Assembly (NCBI GenBank): GCA_017440525.1
Contig: JAFSHB010000091.1
Coordinates: forward strand, 1-58,747
From: Oscillospiraceae bacterium
GTDB lineage: Bacteria > Bacillota > Clostridia > Oscillospirales > Oscillospiraceae
Direction: 5' to 3'
DNA: 58,747 nt
This document shows positions 1 to 17,676 of the stretch, piece by piece (position 1 is the first letter of the stretch; each line of letters starts with the position of its first letter). Made by a program: the position numbers and the translations under genes. The notes below the pieces were generated by a model, which was not told the origin of the DNA, searched no databases, and was given only the letters and a program-made list of their open reading frames with translations.

Positions 1-985
1 CGTCGGGACCGGCACCGTTCAGAGGATAGATGCCGGGTTCGACCTTCATGGGCTTCTGAGGATCGGTGTAGATGTTCTGACGCAGGCCGTACAGAGGCAG
101 AGCCTCGGCCATGGTCATGTTCTCCATCACGATGATGGAGCCGTACTTGACGGTGAACAGAGAAGCCAGAGCAGTCTGCAGGTGCAGGTCGCCCTTGGCG
201 ATCTTCTTCAGGTTGACGATGGAGGGATAACCGAAGGTACGGTCGCCGTCCTTCAGAGCAGTGCGGCGAACGATAACGGCATTGGCGAAAGTCTCCTTGG
301 CATCGGCACCGGTGACGTCGATGACCAGGTTCTTGTTGCCGGCCTTCTCCAGAGCGGCGACGGTGTCATACAGCTCTTCCACGGAAGCGCCCTTGACGCC
401 CAGAGCCACACCTGCAGCGGCAGCAACAGCGCTCATGGCCTCGAAGTTATCCTTGGTAGCACCGTTGAGGATGGCGTTCTTGCCAGCAGCTTCGATAGCA
501 GCCTTGGCATCATCCACATTGGTGGTGTCCACGATCACGCAGCGGCCGGTAGCAGCAGCCTTCTTAGCCAGATCGGCCAGCTTGGCGCCTTCGCCTTCGA
601 CCAGAACGAATTCCACATACTCACGCTCACCGATGCGCTCATAGTCGATCTTAGCCATATCAGCCAGCTTGGCATCCACAGCAGCATCGTCCATGCAGGT
701 GCAAACGGGAACAGCGAACAGGTTGTGAGAGACGAAGGTCTTCTCATGACGGAACAGAACGGTCTCGCCGCCCAGCTTGTGGTCGCCCACAGCGATAGTC
801 TTCATGGGAGGGGCAGTAGCCTCGCTCAGCAGGGCCTTTGCCTCATCAGACATATGGGGGCACTTATCGATGGAAACGGCACCCTGAGCGACCTTCATGC
901 AGAAAGCCATGCAAGTGGGGCTGCCGCACTCTTTACAGTTAGTTTTGGGGGACAGCTTAAAAATGTCCAAACCTTTGACTGCCAT
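1..985 (-). CDS. acsC: Corrinoid iron-sulfur protein large subunit (acetyl-CoA synthase complex gamma), C-terminal part cut by window edge
   Basis: Absent from the ORF track because it runs off the window. The reverse complement from ATG 985..983 reads MAVKGLDIFKLSPKTNCKECGSPTCMAFCMKVAQGAVSIDKCPH, the N-terminal Cys-cluster signature of AcsC/CdhE. An aaggaggg RBS lies just upstream, and the gene sits directly downstream of acsD. Confidence 0.85.
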   Translation of the reverse strand, partial: MAVKGLDIFKLSPKTNCKECGSPTCMAFCMKVAQGAVSIDKCPHMSDEAKALLSEATAPPMKTIAVGDHKLGGETVLFRHEKTFVSHNLFAVPVCTCMDDAAVDAKLADMAKIDYERIGEREYVEFVLVEGEGAKLADLAKKAAATGRCVIVDTTNVDDAKAAIEAAGKNAILNGATKDNFEAMSAVAAAAGVALGVKGASVEELYDTVAALEKAGNKNLVIDVTGADAKETFANAVIVRRTALKDGDRTFGYPSIVNLKKIAKGDLHLQTALASLFTVKYGSIIVMENMTMAEALPLYGLRQNIYTDPQKPMKVEPGIYPLNGAGPD

Positions 986-1006
986 AGTATGTATTCCCTC
1001 CTTATC

Positions 1007-1951
1007 TTAGATCAGTGCGTCGATCATCTTAGCGATGGCTTCGACAGCAGCGGGGTGGCGCATGATGACAGCGTCGGAGCCGCCGGCCAGACAAGCGGAA
1101 GCGGTAACGACTTCCATCTCGATGGCGCGCTCTTCCTGGCTGCCCCATTCGGGCATATCAGCCTCAGCGGCGGTAGCTTCCTTCACGCCCCAGGTGTCGG
1201 CAGACACGGGGGTGATGATGGGCATCTGCAGCTGAGCATCGCCCTGCTGCAGAGCAGCAGCCTTGATACGATCCAGAGTAGAAGCAACATACTCATAGCC
1301 ATAACCTGCAGCGGCGGAACCGGCGTTCATGACGATGGACTGAGCGTTGACGCCCAGCTGAGTCATAACAGTGTTCAGCTGCTTGGCCAGATTGATATCC
1401 ACAGCGGACTCAGCACCGACCTTCTGGTTGTAAGCCAGGCCTGCGGAAGCGCCGACAGCCTTGTAGTTCTCTTCGCGAGCGGAGAGGACCAGGATGTTCT
1501 TGCCGGCCAGAGCCTCAGCGATCTTGTTGAACAGTTCGGCATCCTTATCGACGTTCTTGCAGCCCACGATGACCAGAGGCAGATCGGTAGCGGCGGCAAC
1601 GGACTTTGCCAGCTCGACGCACTCTTCAACGGACTTGTTCTCGCCGTTGGGATCGGCGCCTTCCAGGCTCAGAGCGATGAAAGAAGCACCGGTCATGGTC
1701 TCGACACGCTTTGCCATATCGGCAACAGTGGCACAACCTTCATAGAAAGCCTTGAGGCCCTCAGTGGTGCACATAGCCATGCCGGCATCGGTGATCTCAG
1801 CCCCGATCTTGGGCTTGTTTTCGATGGGTGCATCGAAGGTGTAGAACGGCAGAACATTCTGGCCGCCAAGAACGATAGCCTTGTCACCGGTACCGAGGGT
1901 GACGGCATTGATCTTTGCGTTGAATGCCTGCTTCTTGGGTGCGAAAGACAT
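1007..1951 (-). CDS. acsD: Corrinoid iron-sulfur protein small subunit (acetyl-CoA synthase complex delta)
   Basis: 314-aa ORF. Collinear similarity by eye to Moorella AcsD (VLGG..LPF..F.., LSLEGADPNGENKSVEECVELAKSV, PLVIVGC). Adjacent to acsC and cooC. Confidence 0.85.
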   Translation of the reverse strand: MSFAPKKQAFNAKINAVTLGTGDKAIVLGGQNVLPFYTFDAPIENKPKIGAEITDAGMAMCTTEGLKAFYEGCATVADMAKRVETMTGASFIALSLEGADPNGENKSVEECVELAKSVAAATDLPLVIVGCKNVDKDAELFNKIAEALAGKNILVLSAREENYKAVGASAGLAYNQKVGAESAVDINLAKQLNTVMTQLGVNAQSIVMNAGSAAAGYGYEYVASTLDRIKAAALQQGDAQLQMPIITPVSADTWGVKEATAAEADMPEWGSQEERAIEMEVVTASACLAGGSDAVIMRHPAAVEAIAKMIDALI

Positions 1952-1975
1952 AGTAGTTATCCCCCTTAATAAAAA

Positions 1976-2743
1976 TTACAAAGTTAGCTTTTGCATGATC
2001 TGACGCAGTGCCACCTTGACAGGTGCAGAGTCCGGGACCTGAGAACTGGGCTTGCCGTCACAGTCATACTGATAGACCAGCTCGTCCTGAGGCAGGACAC
2101 CAAGCAGAGGCAGATCGTGCTTTTTTATCTCTTCCATGACACCTGCGTTCAATTCTCCGTCAGGTGCACGGTTGACGATCAGATAAAGGTTCTGAGGCTT
2201 CAGGTCCAAGTCGCGGATCATCTCTGCGATACGGGCCACAGCCTGGATGCCGCGGCGGGAGCAGTCGGAGATCAGCAGCATAGTGTCCACATGGGGCAGC
2301 GTGCCGCGGGAGACATGCTCCAGACCGGCTTCGTTGTCGATCACGACATAGCGGTAATTCTTTGCGTACTTGTCCACCTGAGACTTCAGTACGCCGTTGA
2401 CATAGCAGTAGCAGCCTTTGCCCTGCGTCCGTCCCATGACCAGCATATCGAACTCGTCCTCCTCCACGAGGGCTTCGGAGAACATCATCTCGGCGTAGTC
2501 CGCCTTGGTCATGTTTTTGGGAACGGTCCCCTTCAGCTCTGCCTGCGCCATATCCTCACGGATATCGCCCAGTGTGGTCTCGATCTCAACGCCCAGGACC
2601 TCATTGAGGTTGGAGTTGGCATCGGCATCCACAACAAGAACAGGACCGTTTTTCAGCTTGCACAGATAGTCGATCATCATGCCGCAGGTCGTGGTCTTGC
2701 CCACGCCGCCTTTACCGGCTACGGCAATAGTATGAGTCGCCAT
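1976..2743 (-). CDS. cooC: CO dehydrogenase/acetyl-CoA synthase nickel-insertion ATPase (CooC/AcsF family)
   Basis: P-loop AVAGKGGVGKTT, CxC motif GKGCYCY and MinD-like fold signature. Start chosen at MATHTIAV (ATG 2743) behind an aaggag RBS; the longest ORF extends to 2809. Confidence 0.85.
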   Translation of the reverse strand: MATHTIAVAGKGGVGKTTTCGMMIDYLCKLKNGPVLVVDADANSNLNEVLGVEIETTLGDIREDMAQAELKGTVPKNMTKADYAEMMFSEALVEEDEFDMLVMGRTQGKGCYCYVNGVLKSQVDKYAKNYRYVVIDNEAGLEHVSRGTLPHVDTMLLISDCSRRGIQAVARIAEMIRDLDLKPQNLYLIVNRAPDGELNAGVMEEIKKHDLPLLGVLPQDELVYQYDCDGKPSSQVPDSAPVKVALRQIMQKLTL

Positions 2744-2807
2744 AGAATCGCTCCTTCTTATCACGCACGAAAAATGGGCGCAGTTCTCCCACTTCCCATA
2801 CTGCTTC

Positions 2808-2836
2808 ATTCTAACATATCATTTCGACAATTACAA
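2808..2836 (-). promoter_or_regulatory. Candidate sigma-A promoter for cooC-acsDC (TTGTAA-17-TAGAAT on minus strand)
   Basis: Hexamers read on the reverse complement, 17-nt spacer, in the 155-nt gap upstream of cooC. Confidence 0.3.
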
Positions 2837-2898
2837 GGGCACAACGGTGACAAAAACCACGAAAAAAAGTAAGACTTTTTTTGCAAAATGGCAGTTTC

Positions 2899-3126
2899 CT
2901 ATATCTCGGTGAACAAAAACTTCTGGTAGAGCCCTGAAGCGTTGGCAAATACATTGATCTTGCCCGCACCGGGATAGTCCACAGTCAGCTCCGCAGACTC
3001 GTCCTTGAGGAAGCGCCTGACCCAAGCCACAGGATCGTCCGTCTCCACTTCGTCGAAAAACACATCACGCATCTGATTGTTGCCGCACAGATTGGTGATC
3101 TCTCTGACTACTTCGTATTCCTTCAT
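2899..3126 (-). CDS. Small hypothetical protein (75 aa), start codon overlaps the cooT stop
   Basis: ORF overlaps the cooT stop by 4 nt (3123..3126). I recognise no family. Confidence 0.55.
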   Translation of the reverse strand: MKEYEVVREITNLCGNNQMRDVFFDEVETDDPVAWVRRFLKDESAELTVDYPGAGKINVFANASGLYQKFLFTEI

Positions 3127-3311
3127 GCTTCGCGCACGATGGCCACACCGCCGACCAGATCCACGCTGACGAGCGTGCCGACGATCACAGTCTGACGCTC
3201 CATCAGATCGGTCAGGAGGATCTGCCCCTCCTGCACCTCGATGGCCTGCACATTGCTCATGACGATGTTGGCAGGCTCTTTCGTATTTTTATAAACGGTA
3301 GAAAGGCACAT
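3123..3311 (-). CDS. cooT: CooT-family nickel-binding protein
   Basis: 62 aa, starts MC (Cys2 is the Ni ligand in CooT). Size and beta-rich pattern (..VDLVGGVAIV..) match CooT. Lies in an acs/cooC context. Confidence 0.7.
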   Translation of the reverse strand: MCLSTVYKNTKEPANIVMSNVQAIEVQEGQILLTDLMERQTVIVGTLVSVDLVGGVAIVREA

Positions 3312-3322
3312 AACGGACCTCC

Positions 3323-3676
3323 TTACTGCATGGCCGCCAGAATGGTGGACAGACGCAGATTGCCCTTTTCAAAATCGCTGACCGCCAGCATGACCTGCTC
3401 ATAGGCAGTCTTGTCGCCCATGTCGCCCAGCTTCTTGGCCAGCTCTGCCAGTTCATTGGCGTGTGCCGTATTGTGGGCCACCATGTATTTCATCAGCGCC
3501 ATGAGCTCTTCCTTGGGCGTATGCTGACCACAGCCGCCGCAGGACGCACAAGCAGAGGGCTCACAGCCGTGGTGATGCTCGTGCCCGTGATCATGAGCGT
3601 GATGATGCTCGTGGGTGTGGGTCACACCGTCGTGGGTGTGGGTATGTTCATGGATACCTTCATGATCCAGATGCAT
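3323..3676 (-). CDS. Histidine-rich metal-binding protein (candidate Ni storage/delivery, CooJ-like role)
   Basis: The N-terminal ~50 aa are dominated by His (HEHTHTHDGVTHTHEHHHAHDHGHEHHHG), followed by CEPSACASCGGCG and a helical C-terminal domain. First gene of the cooT operon. Confidence 0.6.
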   Translation of the reverse strand: MHLDHEGIHEHTHTHDGVTHTHEHHHAHDHGHEHHHGCEPSACASCGGCGQHTPKEELMALMKYMVAHNTAHANELAELAKKLGDMGDKTAYEQVMLAVSDFEKGNLRLSTILAAMQ

Positions 3677-3710
3677 ATCGTATTCCTCCTATATAGATAA
3701 ATTTGTACTT

Positions 3711-3894: not shown

Positions 3895-3970
<76 letters not shown>

Positions 3971-3973
<3 letters not shown>

Positions 3974-4010
3974 CCTTGAAACCACTATGGTTTCAAGGTT
4001 TTTGCTTTTT
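3971..4010 (+). terminator. Intrinsic terminator after tRNA-Ala
   Basis: Hairpin aaaccttgaaacc/ggtttcaaggttt followed by a T-rich run. Confidence 0.6.
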
Positions 4011-4072
4011 CTGCGGCAGTTTTGACAGCGCTTGAATTTTTCTCAAATTTGAAACATTCAAGAGGTATCAAA

Positions 4073-5005
4073 ATGGCAAAAATCAAACGAACAGCAGCGC
4101 TTGTATCCACCACCGAAGAGGTCTTTTCGGCGTTTTTATCTGCCGCCGCATCACGCGGAGTCAAAGATAAAACGCTGAACACCTACAAACAGCACTTTCG
4201 CTCCATTTCCAAAAGGCTCGACACATCCATTCCCATCAAAGATCTGAGCAAAAGTGATTTGGACGATATGATCTTCCAGATGCGAAACAGCGACCTCTCC
4301 CCTCAATCCATCAACAGCTACACGAGAACCTTGAAGGTCTTTCTCTCATGGTGCAACGAGGAAGGGTTCTCCACACTGAACATCAAGATCTTCAAAGCAG
4401 CTGAAGCGATCAAGGAAACTTATTCCGATGAAGAATTGCTGAAACTACTGAAGAAGCCTCTCGCCTCCTGTTCTTTCTGTGAACTTAGAAACTGGGCAAT
4501 CGTCAATTTCCTCATGAACAGTGGCTGCCGCGCCGGAACTGTGCGCAACATTCTCAATCAGGATGTGGACATCGCCAGAAGACAGATCGTATTCAGACAC
4601 AATAAAAATGGCAAAGTTCAGTTCATTCCCTTGTGCGAAGTTATGGTCAGCGTCCTCAAAGAATACATGAGCGTGCGCGGCGGCGAACCTTCTGATTTTC
4701 TGTTCTGCACCGAATTTGGCAAGCAGCTGACCGAAAGCGGACTCCATCAGGCAATCGAAACCTACAACAAAAGCCGCGATGTGGACAGAACATCCATCCA
4801 CGCATTTCGTCATTCCTTCGCGCGAAAGTATCTTGTTGACTGCGGCGGCGATGCATTCACCCTCCAGAAGCTAATGGGACATTCCACCTTGGCAATGACA
4901 AAGCATTACTGCAACATTTATAACTCAGATATCGCCAACGCGTTCGATCAGCGCTCTCCCCTCTCCCAAATGAGCAGACTCAGAGGATCTGCAATCAAGA
5001 AATAA
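4073..5005 (+). CDS. Tyrosine-type site-specific recombinase/integrase
   Basis: Catalytic signature visible: NSGCRAGTVRNI (Arg), HAFRHSFA (HxxR), GHSTLAMTKHY (His..Tyr). N-terminal SAM-like core-binding domain. Start taken at MAKIKR (ATG 4073). Confidence 0.88.
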   Translation: MAKIKRTAALVSTTEEVFSAFLSAAASRGVKDKTLNTYKQHFRSISKRLDTSIPIKDLSKSDLDDMIFQMRNSDLSPQSINSYTRTLKVFLSWCNEEGFSTLNIKIFKAAEAIKETYSDEELLKLLKKPLASCSFCELRNWAIVNFLMNSGCRAGTVRNILNQDVDIARRQIVFRHNKNGKVQFIPLCEVMVSVLKEYMSVRGGEPSDFLFCTEFGKQLTESGLHQAIETYNKSRDVDRTSIHAFRHSFARKYLVDCGGDAFTLQKLMGHSTLAMTKHYCNIYNSDIANAFDQRSPLSQMSRLRGSAIKK

Positions 5006-5019
5006 ACAACTGTTAAACA

Positions 5020-5059
5020 AAAAAGTAGTAAGAACCAATCAAGGTTCTTACTACTTTTT
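5020..5059. terminator. Bidirectional terminator between the convergent integrase and HEPN-motif genes
   Basis: Perfect 17-bp stem (aaaaagtagtaagaacc / ggttcttactacttttt) with A/T runs on both sides. Confidence 0.7.
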
Positions 5060-5091
5060 AACATCTTTTTATAGAACTAAATCAGCTTTGT

Positions 5092-6099
5092 TTAAGAGAA
5101 ATTCTCTAAAGTTTTGTATATGCGTCTCATCACTTCGAGATATATGGCTGGCAGCTCTTCGTTCACCTTTTTTTCATCAGCAAAAAATCTTTTTCTGTTC
5201 TTAAAAGTCACCAAGTGCCCTTCTTCATTAAAGTCCGGCATATAAATGGCACGCTCAGTTAATCTTCCATTTTCCTTTATGAAGAAAACCTTAGGATGCA
5301 TCTCCCAAATTGCATTGTGAATGAGTTCATTTCTTAAATTTTCAATAATTGAAAGCTGTCGATTGCTCTCAAATATTGTTCCCGTTTTATCCATTTTCAG
5401 TTTTTTTCGATCACCATATAGCAAGCCTTTTGACGCCAATTTTACATATTCACCCTCACAAAGTCTTATATTTTCAAGTTCGTAAGCGATCTTCGTAGTA
5501 ATATCAAATGCAGAATAAAGTTGAATAATAAGACTATGCAGCATGTTAAAAACCAATCGTCCTTCAGAGCTTATTTCATAATGTGTTTCATAAAACTCCA
5601 CCTTTTCTGGAAGCGTAGCCAATAACTTATAAAACCCAATAAAGCTATCATTTGCAGAAAGGATTAGCTCCTGCAGTGTTGAAATTAAACTTTGGCAGTC
5701 TGCCAAATATGCGCAGTGATACTTGACTCTATTTAAGCGCGGTGATAGAAAATTTAAAAAATTCTCCTCTGTGGGAACATCTTCAAAATAATGCTTAAAA
5801 TATTCTTTGGGAAGAGGACAATCGGAATTCAGACCAGCTTCGGTAATTCCAATAGGAAGCATATATGTAATGGCCTCGTACTCTTCCTCTCTATCTAAAA
5901 ATATTTTATGTTGAAACAAATCATAAAGATTAGCACATTGATTCTCTATAGAACGAATTATTTCATCGCCTTGATATGAATATCTCGCTGAGCGAAACTC
6001 ATCATTTAGATTCTCTCGAATGAAAAAACTTCCTTCTTGAGGCCTATCGTTTGAGGCCAACCCTTTGTCTGAATAAAATAATGTACCTTTCATTTTCAT
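5092..6099 (-). CDS. Hypothetical protein with C-terminal HEPN-like RNxxxH motif (candidate RNase effector)
   Basis: 335-aa AT-rich ORF. Its ATG directly abuts the WYL gene stop (tag|atg at 6100/6099). NLRNELIHN (residues ~254-262, nt 5317..5334 encode RNELIH) fits the HEPN Rx4-6H signature. I recognise no other family. Confidence 0.5.
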   Translation of the reverse strand: MKMKGTLFYSDKGLASNDRPQEGSFFIRENLNDEFRSARYSYQGDEIIRSIENQCANLYDLFQHKIFLDREEEYEAITYMLPIGITEAGLNSDCPLPKEYFKHYFEDVPTEENFLNFLSPRLNRVKYHCAYLADCQSLISTLQELILSANDSFIGFYKLLATLPEKVEFYETHYEISSEGRLVFNMLHSLIIQLYSAFDITTKIAYELENIRLCEGEYVKLASKGLLYGDRKKLKMDKTGTIFESNRQLSIIENLRNELIHNAIWEMHPKVFFIKENGRLTERAIYMPDFNEEGHLVTFKNRKRFFADEKKVNEELPAIYLEVMRRIYKTLENFS

Positions 6100-7281
6100 C
6101 TAATACATCTCTCTAATCTTATCCATGTAAGTTTTGAACTCGCCGATCACATCATCGGGATAGAGCAACTTTGCTTTCTTGCCGAAGCCCAAGAGCCAAC
6201 CGAAGAACTGGTCACTGATCTCCACCTTTGCGGTCACGCTGAAGTGGTTGTCATCCACTTTGCCGTACTGGACATCTTTGGTGCCGAAGCGGTCAACCAC
6301 TGCGTCCAGAAGCGGATTGATAAAGCGGATCTCCACAAGTTTCTGTTCGCCGCCGTACATGGAGAACACACGCTTGGTGTAGGTCTTCAGATCAATCTTC
6401 TCAAATACTTCCTCGCCGTCTCTCGCCTCGCCTGTGAAGCGGAGGTCCTTCATGCGATCCACGCGGTAGGTTCTCATGTCCTGTGCATAGTCATCAAAGG
6501 CCAGAAGATAGTAGTTGCCATCGTTGATGAGGAGCTGGTATGGGCTGACCGTGTATCTGGCTCCTTGGCGGCGTTCCACTTGCTTACTCATGTCCCCGAT
6601 GGTGTACTTGGTGTATTTGAAGCTGATTTTCTCAGGCGTGTGCGGTTCGCCGTCCAGATGATAGCTCATAGCATCATTGATGACAGCGATGTTGTTCATC
6701 ACGCCTCTGTTGTCGGTCTTGACTCGATCCGTCAGGAATGCGTTGTGCCGGATCTTGCGCGCTTGTTCTTCGCTGACAAATTCACAGACCACATCCAAAA
6801 GCTGCTTGGCCTTCCCTTCAGCAATGAACTTGGCAGCATAGACGCATTCTGCCAACAGACGCATATCATTGAGTTCAAATTTACGCTGCCGCACATAGAA
6901 GCCTTTTCTGTTCTTATCGTAGAGTACTGTCTTCAGATCGTTCAGCTCTTCCTCATCGCCTGACTCTTCCGCTTCCGCAAACATCTGATCCACTTCCTCC
7001 AGATCGATGTCCTCTTGGAGCATGAGCATGATGCGGTTGATGTCTTCGATGTCTTTATAGATGGAACGGCGTTCTGCCGGAATGCCACAGCCTTCCAAAT
7101 AGCCGATAATATCATAGGAAGATTTGGGGTTGTTCTCATCGGAGTATTTCAGCAAATACTGAAGAACCATGTAGGCTTTGAGTCGCTGCTCTTTCTGCCT
7201 GCCGTGCTTGGCAACGACCTTTCCCTCCAAGCCTTTGTCGGCTTTACGAGTCATTTTCTTGTATACAATTTCGTCAGCCAT
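6100..7281 (-). CDS. WYL-domain transcriptional regulator (HTH-WYL-WCX architecture, BrxR/CapW-like)
   Basis: N-terminal wHTH region, then YQLLINDGNYYLLAFDDYAQDMRTYRVDRM (WYL core) and a C-terminal extension. 393 aa. Confidence 0.8.
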   Translation of the reverse strand: MADEIVYKKMTRKADKGLEGKVVAKHGRQKEQRLKAYMVLQYLLKYSDENNPKSSYDIIGYLEGCGIPAERRSIYKDIEDINRIMLMLQEDIDLEEVDQMFAEAEESGDEEELNDLKTVLYDKNRKGFYVRQRKFELNDMRLLAECVYAAKFIAEGKAKQLLDVVCEFVSEEQARKIRHNAFLTDRVKTDNRGVMNNIAVINDAMSYHLDGEPHTPEKISFKYTKYTIGDMSKQVERRQGARYTVSPYQLLINDGNYYLLAFDDYAQDMRTYRVDRMKDLRFTGEARDGEEVFEKIDLKTYTKRVFSMYGGEQKLVEIRFINPLLDAVVDRFGTKDVQYGKVDDNHFSVTAKVEISDQFFGWLLGFGKKAKLLYPDDVIGEFKTYMDKIREMY

Positions 7282-7296
7282 TTGCGGCAGCTCCTT

Positions 7297-7323
7297 TTTG
7301 AAAGTGCATTTTCAAATAGTATA
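7297..7323 (-). promoter_or_regulatory. Candidate WYL-operon promoter (-10 TATACT with TG extension) plus overlapping 20-bp palindrome (putative operator)
   Basis: On the reverse complement, tgtTATACT lies at 7318..7323. The palindrome TTTGAAA-N6-TTTCAAA at 7297..7316 sits between the -10 box and the RBS. Confidence 0.4.
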
Positions 7324-7381
7324 ACACATCAAATAAGAAGCGAAAAGGAATTTTTACCACATTTTTTAGAAAACGATGTAT

Positions 7382-9232
7382 TTACAACTTTTCGGTCATT
7401 TGCTTCTCTAATTCAGGCACAATCTGGAATAGATCACCCACGATGCCGTAATTTGCGATACCGAAGATCTCCGCCTTGGGATCGGAGTTGATGGCAACCA
7501 CACAGCGGGCATCGGCAACACCGGTCATGTGCATAGCAGAGCCGGAAATGCCGCAGGCAAAATAGATGGTGGGGCGCAATGTTCTGCCGTTGACACCGAT
7601 CTGATACTGGGGAGAGATCATCCGAAGTTCCACCGCACCACGGGATGCACCAATATCCGCACCAATGGCATCGGCAAAATCACAGCACAGGTCAAAGCCG
7701 TCCATATCCCGTATGCCTCTGCCCATGCCGACAACCATAGAAATCTCGTTGCCGTTCTGAAGCTGGAAACCAGGAGCGTCGGTTTGGCTCAGCACACGGA
7801 TCTTGTCAGCAATCCCGGATTTGGATACGCTGACACGGATGATCTGCGGATCACCGCCGCCCATGGCAGGTTTCAGAAACACACCCTCACGGATGGTTCC
7901 CATCTGGGGGCGCTTCTCTTTGCAGATAATGTCTGCCATCAGCTTGCCACCGTAGGCAGGACGACTCCAAATAATACCGCCCTTTTCACCGTCATAGCGA
8001 ACAGAGGTGCATTCCGCTGTCAAACCGGTATGGAAACGGGCGGCGATCCGTGCAGCCAGTTCCTTGCCGAACTCTGTGCCGCCGATCAGCAATCCCTCCG
8101 GCTGATACTGCCGGATAATACCCGCTACCGCTTCGGTATAGGAGGTGGACAGATAATTGCGTAATGTTTCATCCTGGCAGGAGATGATCTCGTCCACCGG
8201 GTATTGGGCAAGCTCTGCTTCTGCCTTGCGGTTGTCCCATCCTGCCAGGATGGCGCATACCCGCAGCTTTGCCGCTGCTCCGATCTCCAACGCAGGAGTC
8301 AGCAGTTCCAGACCAAGACTTTTGCAGGAGCCGTCTTTGTTCTGCTCCACAAAGACGCAAATGCGTCCGCTGCCGGTGTCGGTGTTTCGTGTGGTTTCTG
8401 TTTCCTGGACGGTGGTTTTTGTGCCCAGTAGTCCATCCTCTTGCAAGTGCCGAAGAAGAACACCAACCTTTTCTTTGGGTGTACCCTTATCAATGATAAC
8501 ATTATTCCGCTGAGCAGATGGCACGAAGCTGCGAACCACCTTGGTGGCAGAACCACGCAGACCGATCTCGTCTTGATTTAGCCAGGGCTCCAGATCGGCA
8601 AGGCTGAGCCGGGGGATGACGATTTCTTCCGCCTTTTCCAACCGTTCATGGATGGCGGAACGCAGAAACACATCTCCGCTGAGAGGATAAGTAACAAGCA
8701 GAGGAAAGGCGGCATCCACAAGCAGCTTTTTATCGTCAGCGGTGTACTCAATCTGACAGGAGATGCCGGTGTAATCCAATCGGGAAATGTTGGCAAAATG
8801 ATGGATGTTCAGCAGCTCCGCCAGTTCCGGGCCTACCTGCCCGGTTTCTCCGTCAATGGTGCTTTTTCCGCAGAAAATCATATCGAAGTTTTCTCCGCTG
8901 CGCTGCTGTTCATATTGGATAGCCGCCGCCAAAACGGAAGCGGTTGCAAAGGTATCGGAACCACCGAAAGCGGGATCGGTCAGCAGTATCGCCCGGTCAG
9001 CGCCCACCAAATAAGCAGAAACCAGTTCTGCTTCTGCCTGGGGTGCGCCCATGGAGATGGCCGTGACTTTTCCGCCGAACTGATCTTTCATACGCAGTGC
9101 TTTTTCCAGCACATAGTGGTCAGCGGGATTCATAATGGTGTTGATGCCGTGTCGAACCAAACGGTGAGTCTTTGGGTCAATGGTCATATGCCCGGTATTG
9201 AGAACCTGCTTGATGCAGACAAGAATATTCAT
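7382..9232 (-). CDS. Electron transfer flavoprotein, fused beta (N-terminal) and alpha (C-terminal) subunits
   Basis: The N-terminal ~260 aa (MNILVCIKQV...PADHYVLEKALRMK..) is EtfB-like. After a T/E-rich linker the C-terminal ~320 aa is EtfA-like (..YFACGISGSAMHMTG.. FAD-binding segment). It is one uninterrupted ORF. Start taken at ATG 9232 behind GGAGG. Confidence 0.8.
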   Translation of the reverse strand: MNILVCIKQVLNTGHMTIDPKTHRLVRHGINTIMNPADHYVLEKALRMKDQFGGKVTAISMGAPQAEAELVSAYLVGADRAILLTDPAFGGSDTFATASVLAAAIQYEQQRSGENFDMIFCGKSTIDGETGQVGPELAELLNIHHFANISRLDYTGISCQIEYTADDKKLLVDAAFPLLVTYPLSGDVFLRSAIHERLEKAEEIVIPRLSLADLEPWLNQDEIGLRGSATKVVRSFVPSAQRNNVIIDKGTPKEKVGVLLRHLQEDGLLGTKTTVQETETTRNTDTGSGRICVFVEQNKDGSCKSLGLELLTPALEIGAAAKLRVCAILAGWDNRKAEAELAQYPVDEIISCQDETLRNYLSTSYTEAVAGIIRQYQPEGLLIGGTEFGKELAARIAARFHTGLTAECTSVRYDGEKGGIIWSRPAYGGKLMADIICKEKRPQMGTIREGVFLKPAMGGGDPQIIRVSVSKSGIADKIRVLSQTDAPGFQLQNGNEISMVVGMGRGIRDMDGFDLCCDFADAIGADIGASRGAVELRMISPQYQIGVNGRTLRPTIYFACGISGSAMHMTGVADARCVVAINSDPKAEIFGIANYGIVGDLFQIVPELEKQMTEKL

Positions 9233-9287
9233 AAAAGCCTCCAAGCTGTATATTCTCCTTTATTTTAGCACACTCTCCCAAAGCAGA

Positions 9288-9318
9288 AAACCATACAAAA
9301 TCCCAATCTGTATGGTTT
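9288..9318. promoter_or_regulatory. 10-bp inverted repeat (aaaccataca-N11-tgtatggttt), candidate TetR operator
   Basis: Perfect inverted repeat in the divergent etf/tetR intergenic region, abutting the tetR -35 box. Confidence 0.45.
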
Positions 9319-9321
9319 GCT

Positions 9322-9350
9322 TTGACATTTTCTTTTCTCTGTGAGATAAT
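9322..9350 (+). promoter_or_regulatory. Candidate promoter of the TetR gene (TTGACA-17-GATAAT)
   Basis: Consensus -35 box, 17-nt spacer, ~18 nt before ATG 9368. Confidence 0.5.
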
Positions 9351-9367
9351 AACCGTGAGGTGATCCC

Positions 9368-9925
9368 ATGTCCTTACCAAACGGAACCAAGTGGCTCTTT
9401 GCCCAGACCCTGCGGCAGATGCTTTTGACACGGAGCTTTCGGCAAATCAAAATAACCGATCTGTGCGCTGCCTGCGGCGCAGACCGGCAGACCTTTTATT
9501 ATCATTTCAAAGATAAGTACGATCTGGTGGCCTGGGTCTATGAGCAGACCTTCCAGGGGATCCTCCGGGAATCCGGCGGTGTTTTTCGCTTTGAAGAAAT
9601 GGTGATGCTACTGAAAGCCTTGCAGGAAGACCGTGCCTTTTACAGAAAGGTCTTTGACGATCATTCTCAGAATGCGCTGCCATCCTACATCCAGCAGGTC
9701 AATCAAGCCTATGTGCGGACATTTCTGCTCCGGGAATCCCAAACTGCAACCCTGCCTGACGAAACAGAGTTTGCCATCCGTTTCTATTGCTATGCCTGGA
9801 TCGGCTGCTGGAAGGAATGGATCATGGGCGAGAGCAGTTACAGCGCAGAGGAATACGCAAGGCTTCTCTATGCCCATAGCCGTCTGTTGGGTATACCAAA
9901 CGAGCCGAGACTGCTGCATAACTAA
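9368..9925 (+). CDS. TetR/AcrR-family transcriptional regulator (DhaS-like C-terminal domain)
   Basis: HTH segment FRQIKITDLCAACGADRQTFYYHFKDKYDL, followed by the helical C-terminal domain typical of the family. Confidence 0.8.
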   Translation: MSLPNGTKWLFAQTLRQMLLTRSFRQIKITDLCAACGADRQTFYYHFKDKYDLVAWVYEQTFQGILRESGGVFRFEEMVMLLKALQEDRAFYRKVFDDHSQNALPSYIQQVNQAYVRTFLLRESQTATLPDETEFAIRFYCYAWIGCWKEWIMGESSYSAEEYARLLYAHSRLLGIPNEPRLLHN

Positions 9926-9988
9926 AATATACCGCTATTTTCAAGCGGTTTAGAGGATTTTCTAGAGCAATTCCAATTTTCTAAACGG

Positions 9989-10023
9989 AAAAAGGAGTCA
10001 CCCTTGATAGGTGACTCCTTTTT
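9989..10023. terminator. Bidirectional terminator between the TetR and serine recombinase genes
   Basis: Stem aaaaaggagtcacc / ggtgactccttttt. Confidence 0.6.
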
Positions 10024-10588
10024 AGATGTGATGTTTAGCTCTAATCAATGTGCTTTTACTGATCCCTGTCATGATGGTGATCTGGCGGTAAGTGTTGCCC
10101 TGTTCCAGAAGGGACAACGCAAGTTCGATCTGCTCCGGCGAGAACTTCTTTGGTCTGCCGTCCTTGAAATTGGGATCCTGCTTGGCAGCTGCCTTGCCTG
10201 TTTGGGTTCGCTCGACGATCATTCCCCTCTCGTATTCCGCAAAGACAAGCATGACAGTCAAAATCAAATTGCCTGTTAAAGTGTTTTCAATCAGACCCAT
10301 GTTCAAAATATGTACTCTGATACCTCTTTCAAACAACTTTTTAACAGTCTGGACACCTTCAATTGCGGTTCGGGCAAACCGATCCAATTTGCAGACCACC
10401 AAAGTGTCTCCCTCTTGGAGTTGTTCCAGAAGTCGCATGAACTTCGGTCTTTCCATGGTCTTTCCTGTGAATGCTTCTTGAACGATCTCTTGGCAGCCGT
10501 TTTTCTCCAAAGCAGCCACCTGATCTTCCAGACTGTTTCCGTCTCTGCCCTGCGTGGCAGTTGATACTCTCGCATAGCCGTAAATCAT
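10022..10588 (-). CDS. Small serine recombinase (resolvase/invertase family)
   Basis: [13 protein letters not shown] catalytic Ser motif, resolvase core and C-terminal HTH ([19 protein letters not shown]). Start at ATG 10588 behind GGAGG; the longest ORF extends to 10627. Confidence 0.88.
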
Positions 10589-10818
10589 GGCTTTTTCCTC
10601 CGTTTTTATGACACTAAGTTCTGACACCGATTCTTTGAATGATGTTCAAATCTTGCATTATTCTGTTCGCCATTTTATAATAGATACATGAGATCATTTA
10701 AGTTCTGAAAACTGCGTGAGTTCAAGTACTGCGTGAGAATGAGTTGCCCTGAAACATAGCATTCCCAAGCCTTTGAGCCTTGCGCCGCCAAGCGGCGAAA
10801 GAAGCGAAAAGGTGGGGC

Positions 10819-10869
10819 TGAATGGCATTCAAGAGGTCAGCGGTTCGATCCCGCTTATCTCCACCAAAA
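10819..10869 (+). repeat. 51-bp direct repeat, copy 2 (attR; orphan 3' half of tRNA-Ala)
   Basis: Identical to 3923..3973. No 5' half of a tRNA precedes it. Confidence 0.9.
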
Positions 10870-10914
10870 AAAGAAAGACATCCTTTGGATGTCTTTCTTT
10901 TTTTGGTGGAGATA
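10856..10914 (+). terminator. Perfect 28-bp-stem hairpin that incorporates the tRNA 3' end (probable native tRNA terminator)
   Basis: tatctccaccaaaaaaagaaagacatcc / ttt / ggatgtctttctttttttggtggagata. Confidence 0.6.
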
Positions 10915-11118
10915 GGTTTGGGTGAGAAGCATCGTTCGAAGGCAAGCATTTTGCCGGAGACAGCCGGCAGCCGCACATTTGTGCGGCGTACTTTTGCCGC
11001 AGGCAAAAGAAAATGCGCAGCCTCACGAAGCAGCGAAGCTGCGGAGTATCCCGCTCATCTCAAGCACTTTTCACTATACAAATAGACCACAGGGACCATC
11101 TTCCGTTTTCCCTGCGGT

Positions 11119-11325
11119 CTATTTTTCGTCTACATATTCAATTACATCCTCTACTCTGCACTCAAGCAGTTTGCAAAGTAAGGCAATGGTATTCGTTGAG
11201 GTACTGTTGCCACTCTTGATCGAATAGTAGGTCGCTCTGTTGAAGCCCATCTTCTGTAGTTGATAAGAGGTGATACCCTTCTTTTTCATCGTCCTGAAAA
11301 GGGGCTCATAACTCACTTTTGCCAT
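11119..11325 (-). CDS. XRE-family helix-turn-helix transcriptional regulator
   Basis: 68 aa. GITSYQLQKMGFNRATYYSIKSGNSTSTNTIALLCKLL is a classic Cro/CI-type HTH. Confidence 0.75.
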   Translation of the reverse strand: MAKVSYEPLFRTMKKKGITSYQLQKMGFNRATYYSIKSGNSTSTNTIALLCKLLECRVEDVIEYVDEK

Positions 11326-11426
11326 AAGCACCACCCATATACTTGTTTATTTAAGTATATTGTGTGGAACATCATCTTGAATATGTCTAAATATCTGAGT
11401 ATAATCGATATGGCGAGGTGGTGTTT

Positions 11427-11906
11427 ATGAGAGAATGGACCAGCTGTTTTACCGGACATAGAGATCTGCCCGTAGATGAGATACAAGAGATCGAAGCACG
11501 CACGATCCATTAGATTCGCAAGCTCATCATCGAACATGGTGTTCGTTACTTTGGTGTAGGAGGTGCGATCGGCTATGACACCCTCGCCGCAAAAGCATTG
11601 TTTCAGATCAAAGAACGCGAATTCCCTCATATCAAAATAATACTGGTCTATCCTTTTGAACAGTTTACGGCCAGGTGGTCCCCTATTCAAAAGGCTGAGT
11701 ATAAAAAACTTTTTCCAAAGTATGACAAGTGTGTCTGCATATGCAAGGAGCCGAACCGAGAGGCCTATCTGTCAAGAGATAGGCACCTCATAGATAACTC
11801 TGCCTATTGCATCGCCTACTGCGTCCGAAATTTTGGTGGCAGTGCTTACACAGTGAAGTATGCTATGCAAAAAGGAGTGCAGATTCGGAACATCGCGCAC
11901 AAATGA
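11427..11906 (+). pseudogene. DUF1273/SLOG-family protein gene interrupted by an in-frame TAG (11511..11513)
   Basis: ATG 11427 reads MREWTSCFTGHRDLPVDEIQEIEARTIH*IRKLIIEHGVRYFGVGGAIGYDTLAAKALFQIKEREFPHIKIILVYPFEQ.., all in the same frame as the 11598..11906 ORF. CFTGHR and GGAxGxD are family hallmarks. Confidence 0.7.
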
Positions 11907-12125
11907 ATCACGATCAGCTTGCGTTTTCACATGCCGTTTTGAGCATCGGTCTCTCCCCCCCCTGTTTCCTCATCACCGTGATCCATCATTTTTGCAGAAA
12001 CATACTGCATCCGGGCGAAAAGTATGTTATAATGGATGTTCAGTCACCGATCCGGCGTCTGTCGGTGCTAATATTTTGTGGCTGAGGAAAAGTGTGTTGA
12101 CCTTACACGGTCAAAGGAGGACTTT

Positions 12126-13340
12126 ATGAAAAAAACGATCTGCGAGCTCTTCGCAGGTGTGGGCGGGTTCCGCTTGGGATTTGACCGCCTTCAGACCGGC
12201 TGGGAGACCACATGGTTCTCCCAATGGGAGCCGGGCGCAAAGACCCAATGGGCTCACGACTGCTATGTACGCCATCATGGTGACTGTGCCGATCTGCAAG
12301 GCGAATACCACACCGGTGAGGATATCAGCACCATAGACAAGACTGTGATCCCCGACCACTCGGTCTTGGTGGGTGGTTTCCCCTGCCAGGACTACAGCGT
12401 GGCACATACCTTAGCTTCTTCCAAGGGCATCGAGGGCAAGAAGGGCGTGCTTTGGTGGCAGATTCGAGATACGCTCATCGCAAAGAAGGCATCCTTCTGT
12501 ATTTTTGAGAATGTGGACCGGCTCCTCAAATCCCCCGCCTCTCAGCGAGGCAGAGACTTCGGCATCATTTTGGCATGCCTTGCGGAGCTGGGCTACAGCG
12601 CCGAATGGCGAGTCGTCAACGCCGCACAGTACGGTGCGGCCCAGCGCCGCCGCAGGATCTTCATCTTTGCCTATCGCAACGATACCGCATACGCAAAAAA
12701 AATGGAACTTTGCTCCGCGAACGCTGTCATCCGTAAAGACGGCTTTATGGCCAAGGCCTTCCCTGTTTCCCAGATCGGCGATATCACCACCGCGAGCCTC
12801 GACACTGATATCGTTTCTGTGAGCGACAGCTTCCGCTTTGCCTTTGAAAATGCCGGCTATATGCAGGACGGCGAGATCTATACGGCAAAGATCGAAGAGA
12901 CGGAAGAAGCCCCCATCCCGCTGGGACAGGTCCTACAGCGTGATGTTGATGAAAAATATTATATCCCCACAGAGAAGATCGCCAAGTGGACCTACCTGAA
13001 GGGTGCGAAAAAGATTCCCAGAACTTCTGCCGATGGCCACGAGTATGTCTTCTCCGAAGGGCCGATCGCGTTCCCCGATCCGTGGGACAAGCCCAGCCGC
13101 ACCATGCTGACCAGTGAATCTACCCTCAACCGCTCTACCCATGTGGTCACAGACCCCGGTACAGGCAGGTTGCGTCTTCTGACCCCTGTGGAGGCCGAAC
13201 GGCTGCAGGGATTTGATGACCAGTGGACCAACGGCATGCCGGACAGGATGCGATATTTCTGCATGGGAAATGCCCTGGTCGTCTCCATGGTCACGAGGAT
13301 GGGAACGGTGCTCGACACCATCATCGCGAAAGAGCCGTAA
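12126..13340 (+). CDS. dcm: DNA (cytosine-5)-methyltransferase
   Basis: Motif I FAGVGG, motif IV FPCQDYS, motif VI ENV, QRRRR and C-terminal GNA. Start at MKKTICELFAGVGG. Confidence 0.9.
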   Translation: MKKTICELFAGVGGFRLGFDRLQTGWETTWFSQWEPGAKTQWAHDCYVRHHGDCADLQGEYHTGEDISTIDKTVIPDHSVLVGGFPCQDYSVAHTLASSKGIEGKKGVLWWQIRDTLIAKKASFCIFENVDRLLKSPASQRGRDFGIILACLAELGYSAEWRVVNAAQYGAAQRRRRIFIFAYRNDTAYAKKMELCSANAVIRKDGFMAKAFPVSQIGDITTASLDTDIVSVSDSFRFAFENAGYMQDGEIYTAKIEETEEAPIPLGQVLQRDVDEKYYIPTEKIAKWTYLKGAKKIPRTSADGHEYVFSEGPIAFPDPWDKPSRTMLTSESTLNRSTHVVTDPGTGRLRLLTPVEAERLQGFDDQWTNGMPDRMRYFCMGNALVVSMVTRMGTVLDTIIAKEP

Positions 13341-13341
13341 G

Positions 13342-13809: not shown

Positions 13810-13885
13810 TCTTGACAGCTTGTCCCATTTATTGGACGGGCTCTATACTATACTGTCCTCAGCGTTTCGATCTGGAGGTATCTCA

Positions 13886-14422: not shown

Positions 14423-14433
14423 TGATACTGCGT

Positions 14434-14470
14434 ACCTCTCTGCCGACTTCGGCAGAGAGGTGCATTTTTT
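14434..14470 (+). terminator. Intrinsic terminator after the exonuclease gene
   Basis: Stem acctctctgccg / cggcagagaggt followed by gcatttttt. Confidence 0.7.
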
Positions 14471-14484
14471 AAACTGACAGTTTA

Positions 14485-17661: not shown

Positions 17662-17676
17662 ATAAGGAGTGATCGC

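Follow-up and report, generated by a model that had tools for sequence, protein, structure and literature searches.

A stand-alone predicted HEPN ribonuclease in a candidate WYL-anchored cargo hotspot of small tRNA-integrating gut-Clostridia islands

WYL-domain repressors of defence systems, and their sensing of single-stranded DNA (ssDNA), are established (PMC9122601, PMC11662680), and BrxR and CapW are the members closest in kind to the regulator described here (PMC9122601, PMC9122589, PMC9122588, PMC11662680). Among HEPN nucleases, PD-T7-3, or DARNA, is a single-protein abortive-infection tRNase that is activated by ssDNA (bioRxiv 10.64898/2026.02.22.705581). The Cthe_2314-like HEPN family, in turn, was defined computationally in the 2013 survey by Anantharaman, Makarova, Burroughs, Koonin and Aravind, which gives its gene context as ‘None detected’ (PMC3710099). 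Short defence genes are also known from hotspots on integrative elements, such as the P2/P4 hotspots (Rousset et al., bioRxiv 10.1101/2021.01.21.427644). Two further proteins matter for what follows: DUF4238, which protects against T7, and DUF6414, a component of the Dodola system.

The locus considered here lies in a 58,747-nucleotide stretch of DNA from an Oscillospiraceae bacterium, hereafter the window. The explanation that we moderately favour is that small tRNA-integrating islands of gut Clostridia carry a cargo hotspot anchored by a WYL gene, and that one of its slots (slot B) holds, in this island, a gene for a predicted stand-alone HEPN ribonuclease (RNase). The concept falls within known frameworks, namely WYL-repressed defence genes, HEPN abortive infection and mobile-element hotspots.

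An integrative island with two variable slots

The integrase-bearing island is 6.9 kb long and bounded by perfect 51-nt repeats of the 3′ end of a tRNA-Ala gene. Its features, in window positions, are the following.

3895–3970, plus strand: tRNA-Ala (anticodon GGC), the integration target (ARAGORN; Rfam tRNA, 61 bits)
3923–3973, plus strand: attL, a 51-nt direct repeat formed by the 3′ half of the tRNA gene, 100% identical to 10819–10869
4022–5005, plus strand: tyrosine integrase, a backbone gene convergent with the WYL operon (Pfam Phage_integrase, 1.8e-25)
5020–5059: bidirectional terminator hairpin with a 17-bp stem, between the convergent integrase and 335-aa genes (terminator scan)
5092–6099, minus strand: 335-aa Cthe_2314-like HEPN protein (predicted RNase), the slot B cargo
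6100–7281, minus strand: 393-aa WYL-WCX protein with a presumed N-terminal wHTH, a backbone gene and putative repressor
7297–7316: palindrome TTTGAAA-N6-TTTCAAA, candidate WYL operator, between the -10 box and the ribosome-binding site
7318–7326, minus strand: extended -10 promoter element TGTTATACT of the WYL operon, read from the sequence
7382–9244, minus strand: fused EtfB-EtfA flavoprotein in slot A (Pfam ETF and ETF_alpha)
9368–9925, plus strand: TetR regulator in slot A, which overall spans 7382–9925
10022–10627, minus strand: serine recombinase (resolvase), a backbone gene (Pfam Resolvase and HTH_7 in the identical locus L022)
10819–10869, plus strand: attR, the second copy of the 51-nt repeat

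The 25-nt att core occurs only twice in the window, with no occurrence expected by chance, and a tandem arrangement of islands was rejected for lack of a third att copy in the window. Rfam reports the tRNA and no other known RNA element. Much of the layout had been recognized correctly in an earlier, sequence-only reading of this DNA: a tRNA island with an integrase, a strong terminator between convergent genes, two abutted minus-strand reading frames of 393 and 335 codons, and an AT-rich composition (34.7% GC in the 335-codon gene, compared with 49.4% in the WYL gene and 54% in the whole window).

Comparison with sister islands separates a backbone from its cargo. The serine recombinase, the WYL gene with its promoter, the terminator and the tyrosine integrase constitute the backbone, at about 65–92% DNA identity (64–70% for the integrase; about 80% for the serine recombinase relative to L028, L036 and L040). 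Slot A, upstream of the WYL gene, and slot B, which spans exactly the interval from the WYL stop codon to the terminator, are both variable. Inter-island blastn homology runs from 7330/7316 to 6101/6094 and resumes at 5069–5078; that is, it ends exactly at the WYL stop codon and restarts at the conserved terminator. Slot B thus extends from the stop codon (after ...REMY) to the AAAAGATGTTAAAAAG hairpin, the cargo sitting between that stop and the conserved ATAAAAAGATGTTAAAAAG-hairpin. The right border of the slot is conserved and consists of the hairpin plus the ATAAAAAGATGTT that precedes it, up to about 5073. In L026, L036 and L040 the same terminator sequence comes after the cargo; in L029, whose slot is empty (as is that of L039), it comes immediately after the WYL stop codon.

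Behind WYL genes that are 72–97% identical, slot B contains PD-T7-3/DARNA (2e-107; L026 and L046–49), DUF6414 (L040–45), DUF4238 (L033), an unknown 286-aa protein, or nothing. These cargos are co-directional with the WYL gene, begin 0–124 bp past its stop codon and lie ahead of the shared terminator. Slot A is occupied by restriction-modification (R-M) genes of types I, IIG and II in L025, L040 and L036. Since it holds a metabolic Etf/TetR pair in the window, not all island cargo is defence. Because a metagenome scan with a single WYL protein gave only 9 loci, slot contents were compared across a small sample of about 10 distinct island variants.

This arrangement resembles the P2/P4 hotspots in its conserved backbone flanks, its sharply bounded variable slot and its short, mostly single-gene defence systems, DUF4238 among them. 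It differs from them in element type and host, being a 7–10 kb island of Clostridia that combines tyrosine integrase, resolvase and WYL genes, and in that slot B is apparently transcriptionally fused to the WYL regulator.

The WYL regulator and its promoter

The 393-aa protein had been described as an HTH-WYL-WCX regulator. Its WYL domain (residues 240–281; 1.3e-12, 48 bits against a cut-off of 21.8) and WCX domain (residues 316–383; 6.6e-6, 26.8 bits against 23.9) score above the Pfam thresholds, whereas no HTH family was detected by Pfam, NCBIfam or PADLOC and this part of the description is presumptive. PADLOC matches the protein to ‘WYL, cas-associated signalling’ (2.4e-26). Residues 42–82 are strongly conserved and appear wHTH-like by eye.

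The protein has 2603 homologues, the best 120 of which are at least 72% identical to it; viral contigs yielded no relatives. A phmmer search of all PDB chains returned nothing at E<=0.01, and a profile of 20 homologues gave only weak PDB matches (DriD, 2.8e-3; PafBC, about 0.08). Sequence-level membership in the BrxR/CapW group, for which Picton et al. set BLASTP E<1e-5 as the criterion of BrxR homology, was rejected on these grounds. Like BrxR and CapW, the window protein combines WYL and WCX domains, has a candidate palindrome in its own promoter, and is encoded by a type of WYL gene that is immediately followed, in the same direction, by varied defence genes. Unlike them, it bears no sequence-level relation to the solved BrxR or CapW structures, is longer (393 aa) with an acidic insert, and belongs to the fixed backbone of an integrative island instead of to one defence system. 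It is also clostridial, whereas 97% of BrxR homologues are from proteobacteria.

A TGnTA-A-T promoter pattern is conserved at the left edge of the inter-island homology, and the WYL gene has a GGAG ribosome-binding site at 7294–7291. The palindrome between them is unique in the window, with none expected by chance. Five of nine aligned islands keep both arms intact around a variable spacer, a sixth (L027) has a G-to-A change in the left arm, and the palindrome is absent from the other three. No promoter or terminator is apparent between the WYL and HEPN genes in the sequence anatomy. At their junction the DNA reads ATG TAT TAG and then ATG AAA ATG AAA, so that the TAG (6102–6100) directly abuts the ATG (6099–6097) without a gap. 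Exact abutment hinges on the start chosen, as another ATG follows in the same frame 6 nt later (6093) and the public copy of the protein (P0001, 333 aa) is called from there. With either start, there is zero intergenic space and the HEPN gene lacks a separate Shine-Dalgarno sequence; the PD-T7-3 and DUF6414 cargos bring their own. The HEPN gene is probably co-transcribed with the WYL gene and repressed by the WYL protein through the conserved palindrome.

The WYL protein could instead be a regulator of the island life cycle that ties integrase- or resolvase-dependent excision or transfer to DNA damage. In that case the HEPN gene would be a passenger and its co-transcription incidental. This explanation, which partly overlaps with the favoured one, accommodates a WYL gene that stays constant with or without a downstream cargo (L029 and L039 being empty) and is always beside the integrase, as well as the non-defence cargo in slot A here. 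Furthermore, the WYL regulators DriD and PafBC govern DNA-damage responses and not only defence genes. However, four different cargos are placed co-directionally within 0–124 bp of the WYL stop codon and before a shared terminator, a placement that points to selection for expression driven by the WYL promoter. Because the palindrome is part of that promoter, any autoregulation would necessarily govern the cargo too. On balance, a purely life-cycle role seems unlikely.

The HEPN protein and its family

Many proteins would contain an Rx4H motif simply by chance. The sequence NLRNELIHN (residues 254–262 of the 335-aa protein), previously proposed as a HEPN RNxxxH signature, stands up better than that: R256, H261 and N262, together with D199 and K203, are invariant in 42 homologues with identities down to 26%. 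Residue 257 is N, rarely H, across the same set, which provides the polar residue expected directly after R. D199-x3-K203 falls inside the predicted helix 178–209 and corresponds to the helix-2 motif, with D in place of E. HEPN nucleases are characterized by Rx4-6H with N, D or H directly after R, and by an acidic residue in helix 2, typically as Ex3[KR] (PMC3710099). The predicted layout of the protein is as follows.

Residues 1–118: N-terminal alpha/beta domain
Residues 120–161, 178–209 (with D199 and K203) and 247–262 (with R256, N257, H261 and N262): HEPN helices
Residues 271–310 and 312–334: C-terminal part, a beta insert and a helix

The initial impression that the protein matches no family was right for Pfam, NCBIfam and PADLOC, which gave zero matches (none to PF18730 at E<=1), but not beyond them. 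The protein matches phrog_31026, of unknown function, at 1.7e-28, and its homologues lead to PF18730 (HEPN_Cthe2314; gathering threshold 27.1 bits), which is matched by 8 of the 42 at E<0.1 while no other family recurs. For instance, P0096, 34% identical to the window protein (7e-36), reaches 32.0 bits over residues 165–265, above the gathering score, and UniRef labels P0082 and P0083 ‘Cthe-2314-like HEPN domain-containing’. Because the protein's own score misses the threshold and its homologues match, membership rests on transitivity, and these sequence comparisons make the protein a divergent member of the Cthe_2314-like HEPN family. The suggestion of a possibly undescribed effector is thereby superseded, the family having already been named (PMC3710099). 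A profile search of PDB sequences with the 335-aa family found nothing, and single-sequence PDB matches were discarded as noise (e.g., a norovirus capsid at E of about 0.05).

As in the described family, the window protein keeps Rx4-6H, is bacterial and stands alone. In contrast, neither it nor most of its close relatives reach the Pfam threshold, which marks them as a divergent branch, and the family is encountered here both next to R-M genes and in the WYL-anchored hotspot of an island. The distribution is patchy, with 371 clusters at 50% identity among 1.84 billion representatives. Homologues are stand-alone everywhere and conserved over their full length; their genes are AT-rich, on mobile elements, and always lower in GC than their flanks.

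AlphaFold models of the protein are confident (pLDDT 92.5 and 93.8) and contain long helices at 120–161, 178–209, 247–262 and 312–334, with an insert at 210–246. Rx4H lies at the C-terminal end of helix 247–262 and Dx3K in helix 178–209, exactly the helix positions that the Rx4-6H and Ex3[KR] motifs occupy in HEPN domains (PMC3710099). The predicted topology fits HEPN and puts R256, H261, D199 and K203 at the positions of HEPN catalytic residues. Foldseek, however, returned no match at E<=0.001 for the full model against PDB and BFVD or for the C-terminal domain against PDB. The top match of the C-terminal domain, Csm6 (5yjc_A, E=0.77, TM 0.23), is only suggestive. Given the invariant Rx4H at the end of predicted helix 3, Dx3K in helix 2 and the PF18730 homologues, the protein is very probably a HEPN-type RNase.

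It is improbable that this is a helical protein without catalytic relevance or without a part in defence (one of RNA processing or nucleotide binding, for instance) whose Rx4H is coincidental. Such a protein need not resemble any solved HEPN structure significantly or match PADLOC and Pfam itself, and some homologues do neighbour genes for ribosomal protein S2, EF-Ts and Pth. It would hardly be expected to keep R, H, N and D/K invariant at canonical positions and to be linked to PF18730, or to be patchily distributed in AT-rich genes on mobile elements. Nor would it be expected in a slot that sister islands fill with a proven HEPN defence protein.

That protein, PD-T7-3/DARNA, is one of the nearest known parallels. 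It sits in the same slot B behind 82–84%-identical WYL genes (L026, L046–49) and likewise unites an Rx4H HEPN and a non-catalytic domain in one polypeptide without an antitoxin. Its HEPN domain, however, is N-terminal and that of the window protein C-terminal; DARNA has 453 residues and the window protein 335, and DARNA cargos carry their own GGAG ribosome-binding site, which the window gene lacks. Homology between the two was rejected (hhalign probability 0.3), and PADLOC gave no PD-T7-3 match.

Gene pairing and proposed mode of action

The sequence-only reading had cast the two genes as a two-gene defence module. Searches with phmmer and tblastn detected no WYL gene at 21 HEPN-homologue loci, nor did the gene tables of 4 further loci list one, and no partner of any kind recurs among these approximately 25. 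Conversely, no HEPN homologue lies beside any non-identical WYL homologue, and the pairing occurs only in copies of this one island (L022–L023). The HEPN homologues are therefore unlinked to WYL genes, a conserved WYL-HEPN module was rejected and, judged by gene context, the pair is not a dedicated two-gene system. The analogy drawn earlier with Cas13d and WYL1 adds nothing testable for this pair. A small partner upstream of the HEPN homologues was also considered and dismissed, the 126–163 aa reading frames at several loci being unrelated in all-against-all BLAST. Neighbours of the homologues include type I R-M and methyltransferase genes (L021), a KAP NTPase (L051) and N6_Mtase/PRTase-CE/ORC-CDC6-like genes (L019, L050). 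Roughly one neighbour in two is a housekeeping gene or is unannotated.

A toxin-antitoxin or addiction pair serving mainly island stabilisation, with HEPN as toxin and WYL as AbiE-like antitoxin and autorepressor, is very unlikely: the tight coupling with the regulator first, and the frequency of HEPN toxins in such systems (PMC3710099), are set against some 25 HEPN-homologue loci with neither a WYL gene nor a conserved neighbour, WYL genes that accompany unrelated cargos or none, and the lack of relevant RNA-antitoxin-like tandem repeats in 3900–11000. Type III systems with AbiF-like HEPN toxins differ further, as there is no upstream intergenic space here for an RNA antitoxin array.

Under the favoured explanation of a WYL-anchored slot with a stand-alone HEPN RNase, the extended -10 promoter (7326–7318) would, going by sequence anatomy, give rise to one WYL-HEPN mRNA ending at the 5059–5020 hairpin. 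By analogy with BrxR and CapW, a WYL dimer bound to the palindrome (7316–7297), just downstream of the -10 box and presumably around the transcription start, would keep the operon low. A phage or DNA-damage cue, most likely ssDNA acting on the WYL domain as suggested by CapW and DriD, would release the repressor. Since the HEPN gene has no Shine-Dalgarno sequence of its own, its translation would rely on termination at the TAG and reinitiation at the abutting ATG, and such coupling would hold a toxic HEPN protein scarce. As in other members of the superfamily, a HEPN dimer using R256, N257 and H261 with D199 and K203 could then cleave tRNA or mRNA independently of metal and arrest the infected cell, resulting in abortive infection. 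More speculatively, the N-terminal 118-residue domain may serve as a built-in sensor or autoinhibitor, like the non-catalytic domain of DARNA, given that the homologues stand alone everywhere and are conserved over their full length.

As sister islands hold validated defence genes in the same slot, it is plausible that the predicted HEPN cargo is a new defence gene of a familiar kind. A broader proposal, which we put forward tentatively and rate at slightly under even, is that Cthe_2314-like HEPN proteins are self-contained abortive-infection RNases with an N-terminal alpha/beta phage sensor and, in addition, that the interval from WYL stop codon to terminator is a minable defence hotspot. If confirmed, a family that has lacked both context and function since 2013 would receive its first functional assignment, as a single-gene anti-phage defence, and would constitute a second autonomously regulated HEPN effector, one that is unrelated to DARNA and brings a new candidate sensor domain. 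Abundant gut Clostridia (2,603 WYL homologues) would also be credited with a sharply bounded WYL-anchored hotspot that could be mined for short defence genes in a phylum with few validated systems. Further slot candidates are the unknown 286-aa and 128-aa proteins and the solo DUF6414.

A gene pair on an integrative element

In this Oscillospiraceae contig, a WYL regulator gene and a gene for a 335-aa protein with a HEPN-type motif lie end to end on a 6.9-kb integrative element, delimited by 51-nt repeats of the tRNA-Ala 3′ half. Variable cargo segments lie upstream of WYL (slot A) and between the WYL stop and the terminator (slot B).

Features of the island
3895-3970: tRNA-Ala(GGC)
3923-3973 (attL) and 10819-10869 (attR): identical 51-nt copies of the tRNA 3′ half, in direct orientation
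4022-5005: tyrosine integrase, convergent to the 335-aa gene
5020-5059: hairpin with 17-bp stem, between the convergent integrase and the 335-aa gene
6099..5092, minus strand: HEPN ORF, 335 aa
7281..6100, minus strand: WYL-WCX protein ORF, 393 aa
7294-7291: GGAG ribosome-binding site of WYL
7316-7297: palindrome TTTGAAA-N6-TTTCAAA, between the -10 element and the ribosome-binding site
7326-7318: extended -10 element TGTTATACT, start of the conserved module
7382-9925: slot A, 620-aa fused EtfB-EtfA electron-transfer flavoprotein and divergent TetR regulator

The junction reads ...ATG TAT TAG ATG AAA ATG..., with the WYL stop (TAG, 6102-6100) abutting the ATG at 6099. A second in-frame ATG lies 6 nt downstream of the first and is the start used in the public database entry (P0001, 333 aa); whichever is taken, intergenic space is absent and the HEPN gene has no separate Shine-Dalgarno. 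Its GC content, 34.7%, is lower than that of WYL (49.4%) or of the window (54%). A sequence-only reading had described an AT-rich ORF directly abutted by a WYL gene, on a tRNA island beside an integrase and facing a strong convergent terminator; each of these features is confirmed, contiguity running from the first ATG, and the 51-nt repeats mark the ends of the island.

Besides the integrase and the gene pair, the element carries the fused EtfB-EtfA gene, the TetR gene and a serine recombinase. The Etf/TetR pair is an odd, apparently metabolic cargo; sister islands hold restriction-modification systems at the same slot. A hairpin directly after attR (~10858-10912) is probably the displaced tRNA terminator. 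The region just beyond attR (10870-19200) is also rich in conflict-type genes, encoding an HTH_26 protein, a truncated YpsA-SLOG fragment, a C5 DNA methylase overlapping a Vsr endonuclease with a REase_MTES_1575-like tail, an RNase_T exonuclease, a DUF2201 VWA/metallopeptidase with an AAA_5 MoxR-type ATPase, and a BspA-type LRR protein. This region may be the remnant of an older island; the window holds no third att copy. Genes of the acetyl-CoA synthase/CO-dehydrogenase pathway lie in the host flank (1-3700); their products (CdhD-like, CooC/CbiA ATPase, CooT and a His-rich DUF8180 protein) suggest an acetogenic Clostridial host.

A WYL-anchored cargo slot with defined borders

WYL regulators beside varied defence systems are already established, as are defence hotspots on integrative elements. 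What is new is a WYL-anchored cargo slot with precise bounds in a widespread family of Clostridial islands. The 393-aa protein matches Pfam WYL (1.3e-12), WCX (6.6e-6) and the PADLOC WYL model (2.4e-26), while an HTH is detected by none of the libraries searched (Pfam, NCBIfam, PADLOC). The architecture first proposed, HTH-WYL-WCX, thus stands for its last two domains, the HTH being presumptive. With 2,603 homologues at E<=1e-10, the best 120 at least 72% identical, the WYL gene is much commoner and better conserved than the HEPN gene.

Where WYL homologues are 73-100% identical, gene tables reveal a recurrent backbone: a resolvase (or short integrase), segment A, WYL, segment B in the same orientation as WYL, and, convergent with these, an integrase of ~309 aa. 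HTH_26, a 92-aa ORF, a SprT-like gene and DUF6809 precede it in several islands. By blastn, the window and these sister islands are homologous between the -10 box (7330/7316) and the WYL stop (6101/6094), and again from 5069-5078, across the terminator and the 3′ end of the integrase gene; their resolvases are ~80% identical. WYL genes at all junctions end ...REMY-stop. At one sister locus, L029, slot B is empty, and 5 nt past the WYL stop come ATAAAAAGATGTTAAAAAG and the hairpin. At L026, L036 and L040, as in the window, that border comes after the cargo gene; slot B of the window is therefore bounded by the WYL stop and this conserved border, running from 6099 down to ~5074 (the HEPN ORF plus 18 nt).

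Cargo of sister islands (L numbers denote loci; distances are from the WYL stop)
Slot B, L026 and L046-49: PD-T7-3 (PADLOC 2e-107, 3e-106), 12 nt
Slot B, L040-45: DUF6414 protein, 12 nt
Slot B, L033 (WYL 51% identical): DUF4238 + SEC-C protein, 97 nt
Slot B, L036 and L038: unknown 286-aa protein, 124 nt
Slot B, L025: antisense 128-aa ORF
Slot B, L029 and L039: empty
Slot A, L025: type I restriction-modification
Slot A, L040: MmeI-like type IIG enzyme
Slot A, L036: type II REase and C5 methylase

The literature supports a defence role for three slot B cargos. PD-T7-3, now DARNA, is a tRNase of abortive infection, a single HEPN protein that ssDNA activates (bioRxiv 10.64898/2026.02.22.705581), one of the already established effectors of this kind. 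A DUF4238 protein is protective against T7 (bioRxiv 10.1101/2021.01.21.427644), and DUF6414 is one component of the Dodola system. PD-T7-3 and the window HEPN protein share no homology (hhalign probability 0.3) and are analogues, not relatives. The PD-T7-3 and DUF6414 cargos have a GGAG directly 3′ of the WYL stop, whereas the window HEPN gene has none, which makes it probable that HEPN translation is tied to WYL termination at TAG-ATG and stays low.

Some slot contents are unfamiliar, and a few are new cargos worth testing. The DUF6414 protein (L040:6201-7082, also L041-L045), of the Dodola DolA family, is the sole gene of slot B and lacks the ClpB-like partner usual in Dodola. The 286-aa protein (L036:6307-7167, L038:3065-3925) has only a weak SH3_3 match; neither it nor the 128-aa antisense ORF (L025:6608-6994) matched a family, and by position both are candidate unrecognised defence genes. 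Slot A of L026 (1-4843) encodes a 900-aa protein (RNA_pol_A_CTD + Sigma70_r4), a 402-aa unknown and a SNF2/ResIII helicase, an unannotated set that looks like a defence system.

The palindrome upstream of WYL occurs once in the window (0 expected by chance). Its arms are intact around a variable spacer in five of nine aligned islands, and a sixth (L027) has one arm change, a sequence pattern that would be expected of a dimeric repressor's operator over the transcription start. Between WYL and HEPN, promoter and terminator searches gave only weak consensus matches at chance frequency. Defence systems are repressed by the WYL proteins BrxR and CapW, and ssDNA releases or activates CapW and DriD (PMC9122601, PMC9122588, PMC11662680, PMC10853764), work that supports, purely by analogy, a model of WYL as repressor. 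Compared with solved structures, the window WYL protein has no phmmer match; by profile, DriD (2.8e-3) and PafBC are the only ones reached. Unlikely, though in partial overlap with the main model, is that WYL mainly regulates the island's life cycle, the cargo being only a passenger.

The 335-aa protein and its probable HEPN family

Searched alone, the 335-aa protein has no match in Pfam, NCBIfam, PADLOC or PDB sequences; its only direct hit is phrog_31026, an entry with no assigned function (1.7e-28). A search of 5.8 billion proteins yields 100 homologues, the closest non-self one at only 62% identity. Two distant homologues are labelled 'Cthe-2314-like HEPN domain-containing' in UniRef, and one homologue carries PF18730. 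That family, HEPN_Cthe2314, is matched by 8 of 42 members scanned singly, with no second recurring family; P0096, a homologue matching the window protein at 7e-36, exceeds its gathering cut-off over residues 165-265 (32.0 against 27.1 bits). The protein, first taken to match no nameable family, has a name through its homologues. Its family is small, with only 371 clusters retrieved by profile from 1.84 billion representatives; almost all have 310-360 aa and match end to end, making the N-terminal domain integral.

R256, H261, N262, D199 and K203 are invariant in an alignment with pairwise identity down to 26%. Confident AlphaFold2 models (pLDDT 92.5 full length, 93.8 for residues 118-335) predict an alpha/beta domain at the N-terminus (1-118), then long helices (120-161, 178-209), an insert, a helix (247-262), a beta insert and a last helix (312-334). 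In the survey of HEPN proteins by Anantharaman et al. (PMC3710099), the Rx4-6H motif lies 'at the end of helix-3', a polar residue follows its R, and helix-2 has another acidic residue that is conserved, usually within an Ex3[KR] motif. The protein fits all three, with R256-N257...H261 ending helix 247-262 and D199x3K203 inside helix 178-209, which bears out the Rx4-6H signature first noticed by eye. Foldseek against PDB and BFVD finds nothing significant; the top rank for the C-terminal domain is the Csm6 HEPN RNase 5yjc, at E=0.77 and TM 0.23. The proposed fold check gives a mixed result: motif placement fits HEPN, and no structural match reaches significance. On this evidence the protein is very probably a divergent representative of the Cthe_2314-like HEPN family, structure search being the weak spot. 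The failed fold searches would suit a non-catalytic or non-defence helical protein, an improbable reading, since the catalytic-type residues are invariant and gene context speaks against it. The 2013 survey lists this uncharacterised family with its motif conserved and gene context 'None detected' (PMC3710099); a defence assignment by context is new.

HEPN genes without WYL and a proposed mechanism

No WYL gene lies within 6 kb of HEPN homologues at 18 genome/viral and 3 metagenomic loci (phmmer, tblastn with the window WYL), nor in the gene tables of four additional loci. All-against-all BLAST of neighbours reveals no recurrent partner, and Pfam and PADLOC on 90 neighbours find no family in more than three loci. 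Homologue genes come with upstream regions and ribosome-binding sites of their own. On these loci, a conserved WYL-HEPN module, envisaged as a possibly undescribed two-gene system, is rejected; a stress-derepressed HEPN effector on a tRNA island stays a reasonable working model. The independence of the two genes at other loci also contradicts a toxin-antitoxin module, which is very unlikely.

In the working model, a bicistronic operon under WYL repression would hold a potentially toxic stand-alone HEPN RNase scarce until DNA damage, ssDNA or a phage cue lifts the repression. As a presumed dimer, the HEPN domain would then cut cellular or phage RNA via R256/H261 with N257, D199 and K203, halting the infected cell. 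Because homologues stand without a partner, the enzyme would need built-in control, most plausibly in the conserved N-terminal domain. Sequence anatomy, conservation, the link to the family, the make-up of the hotspot and the defence genes in sister slots are observed directly, whereas RNase activity, a defence phenotype, repression, the inducing signal and translational coupling are inferred.

The neighbourhoods of HEPN homologues vary, and in every locus examined the HEPN gene has a GC content below its flanks. At L021 it lies directly 3′ of a type I restriction-modification operon and 5′ of an N6/N4 methyltransferase, and at L051 near a KAP NTPase; some homologues are on viral contigs and some beside housekeeping genes. 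At L019 and L050, which hold the two closest relatives (60-62% identity), it precedes N6_Mtase, PRTase-CE and ORC-CDC6-like genes, which with two unknown genes form the same string (L019:1621-7044, L050:1599-5140). This string may be a distinct multi-gene conflict system that the HEPN gene travels beside.
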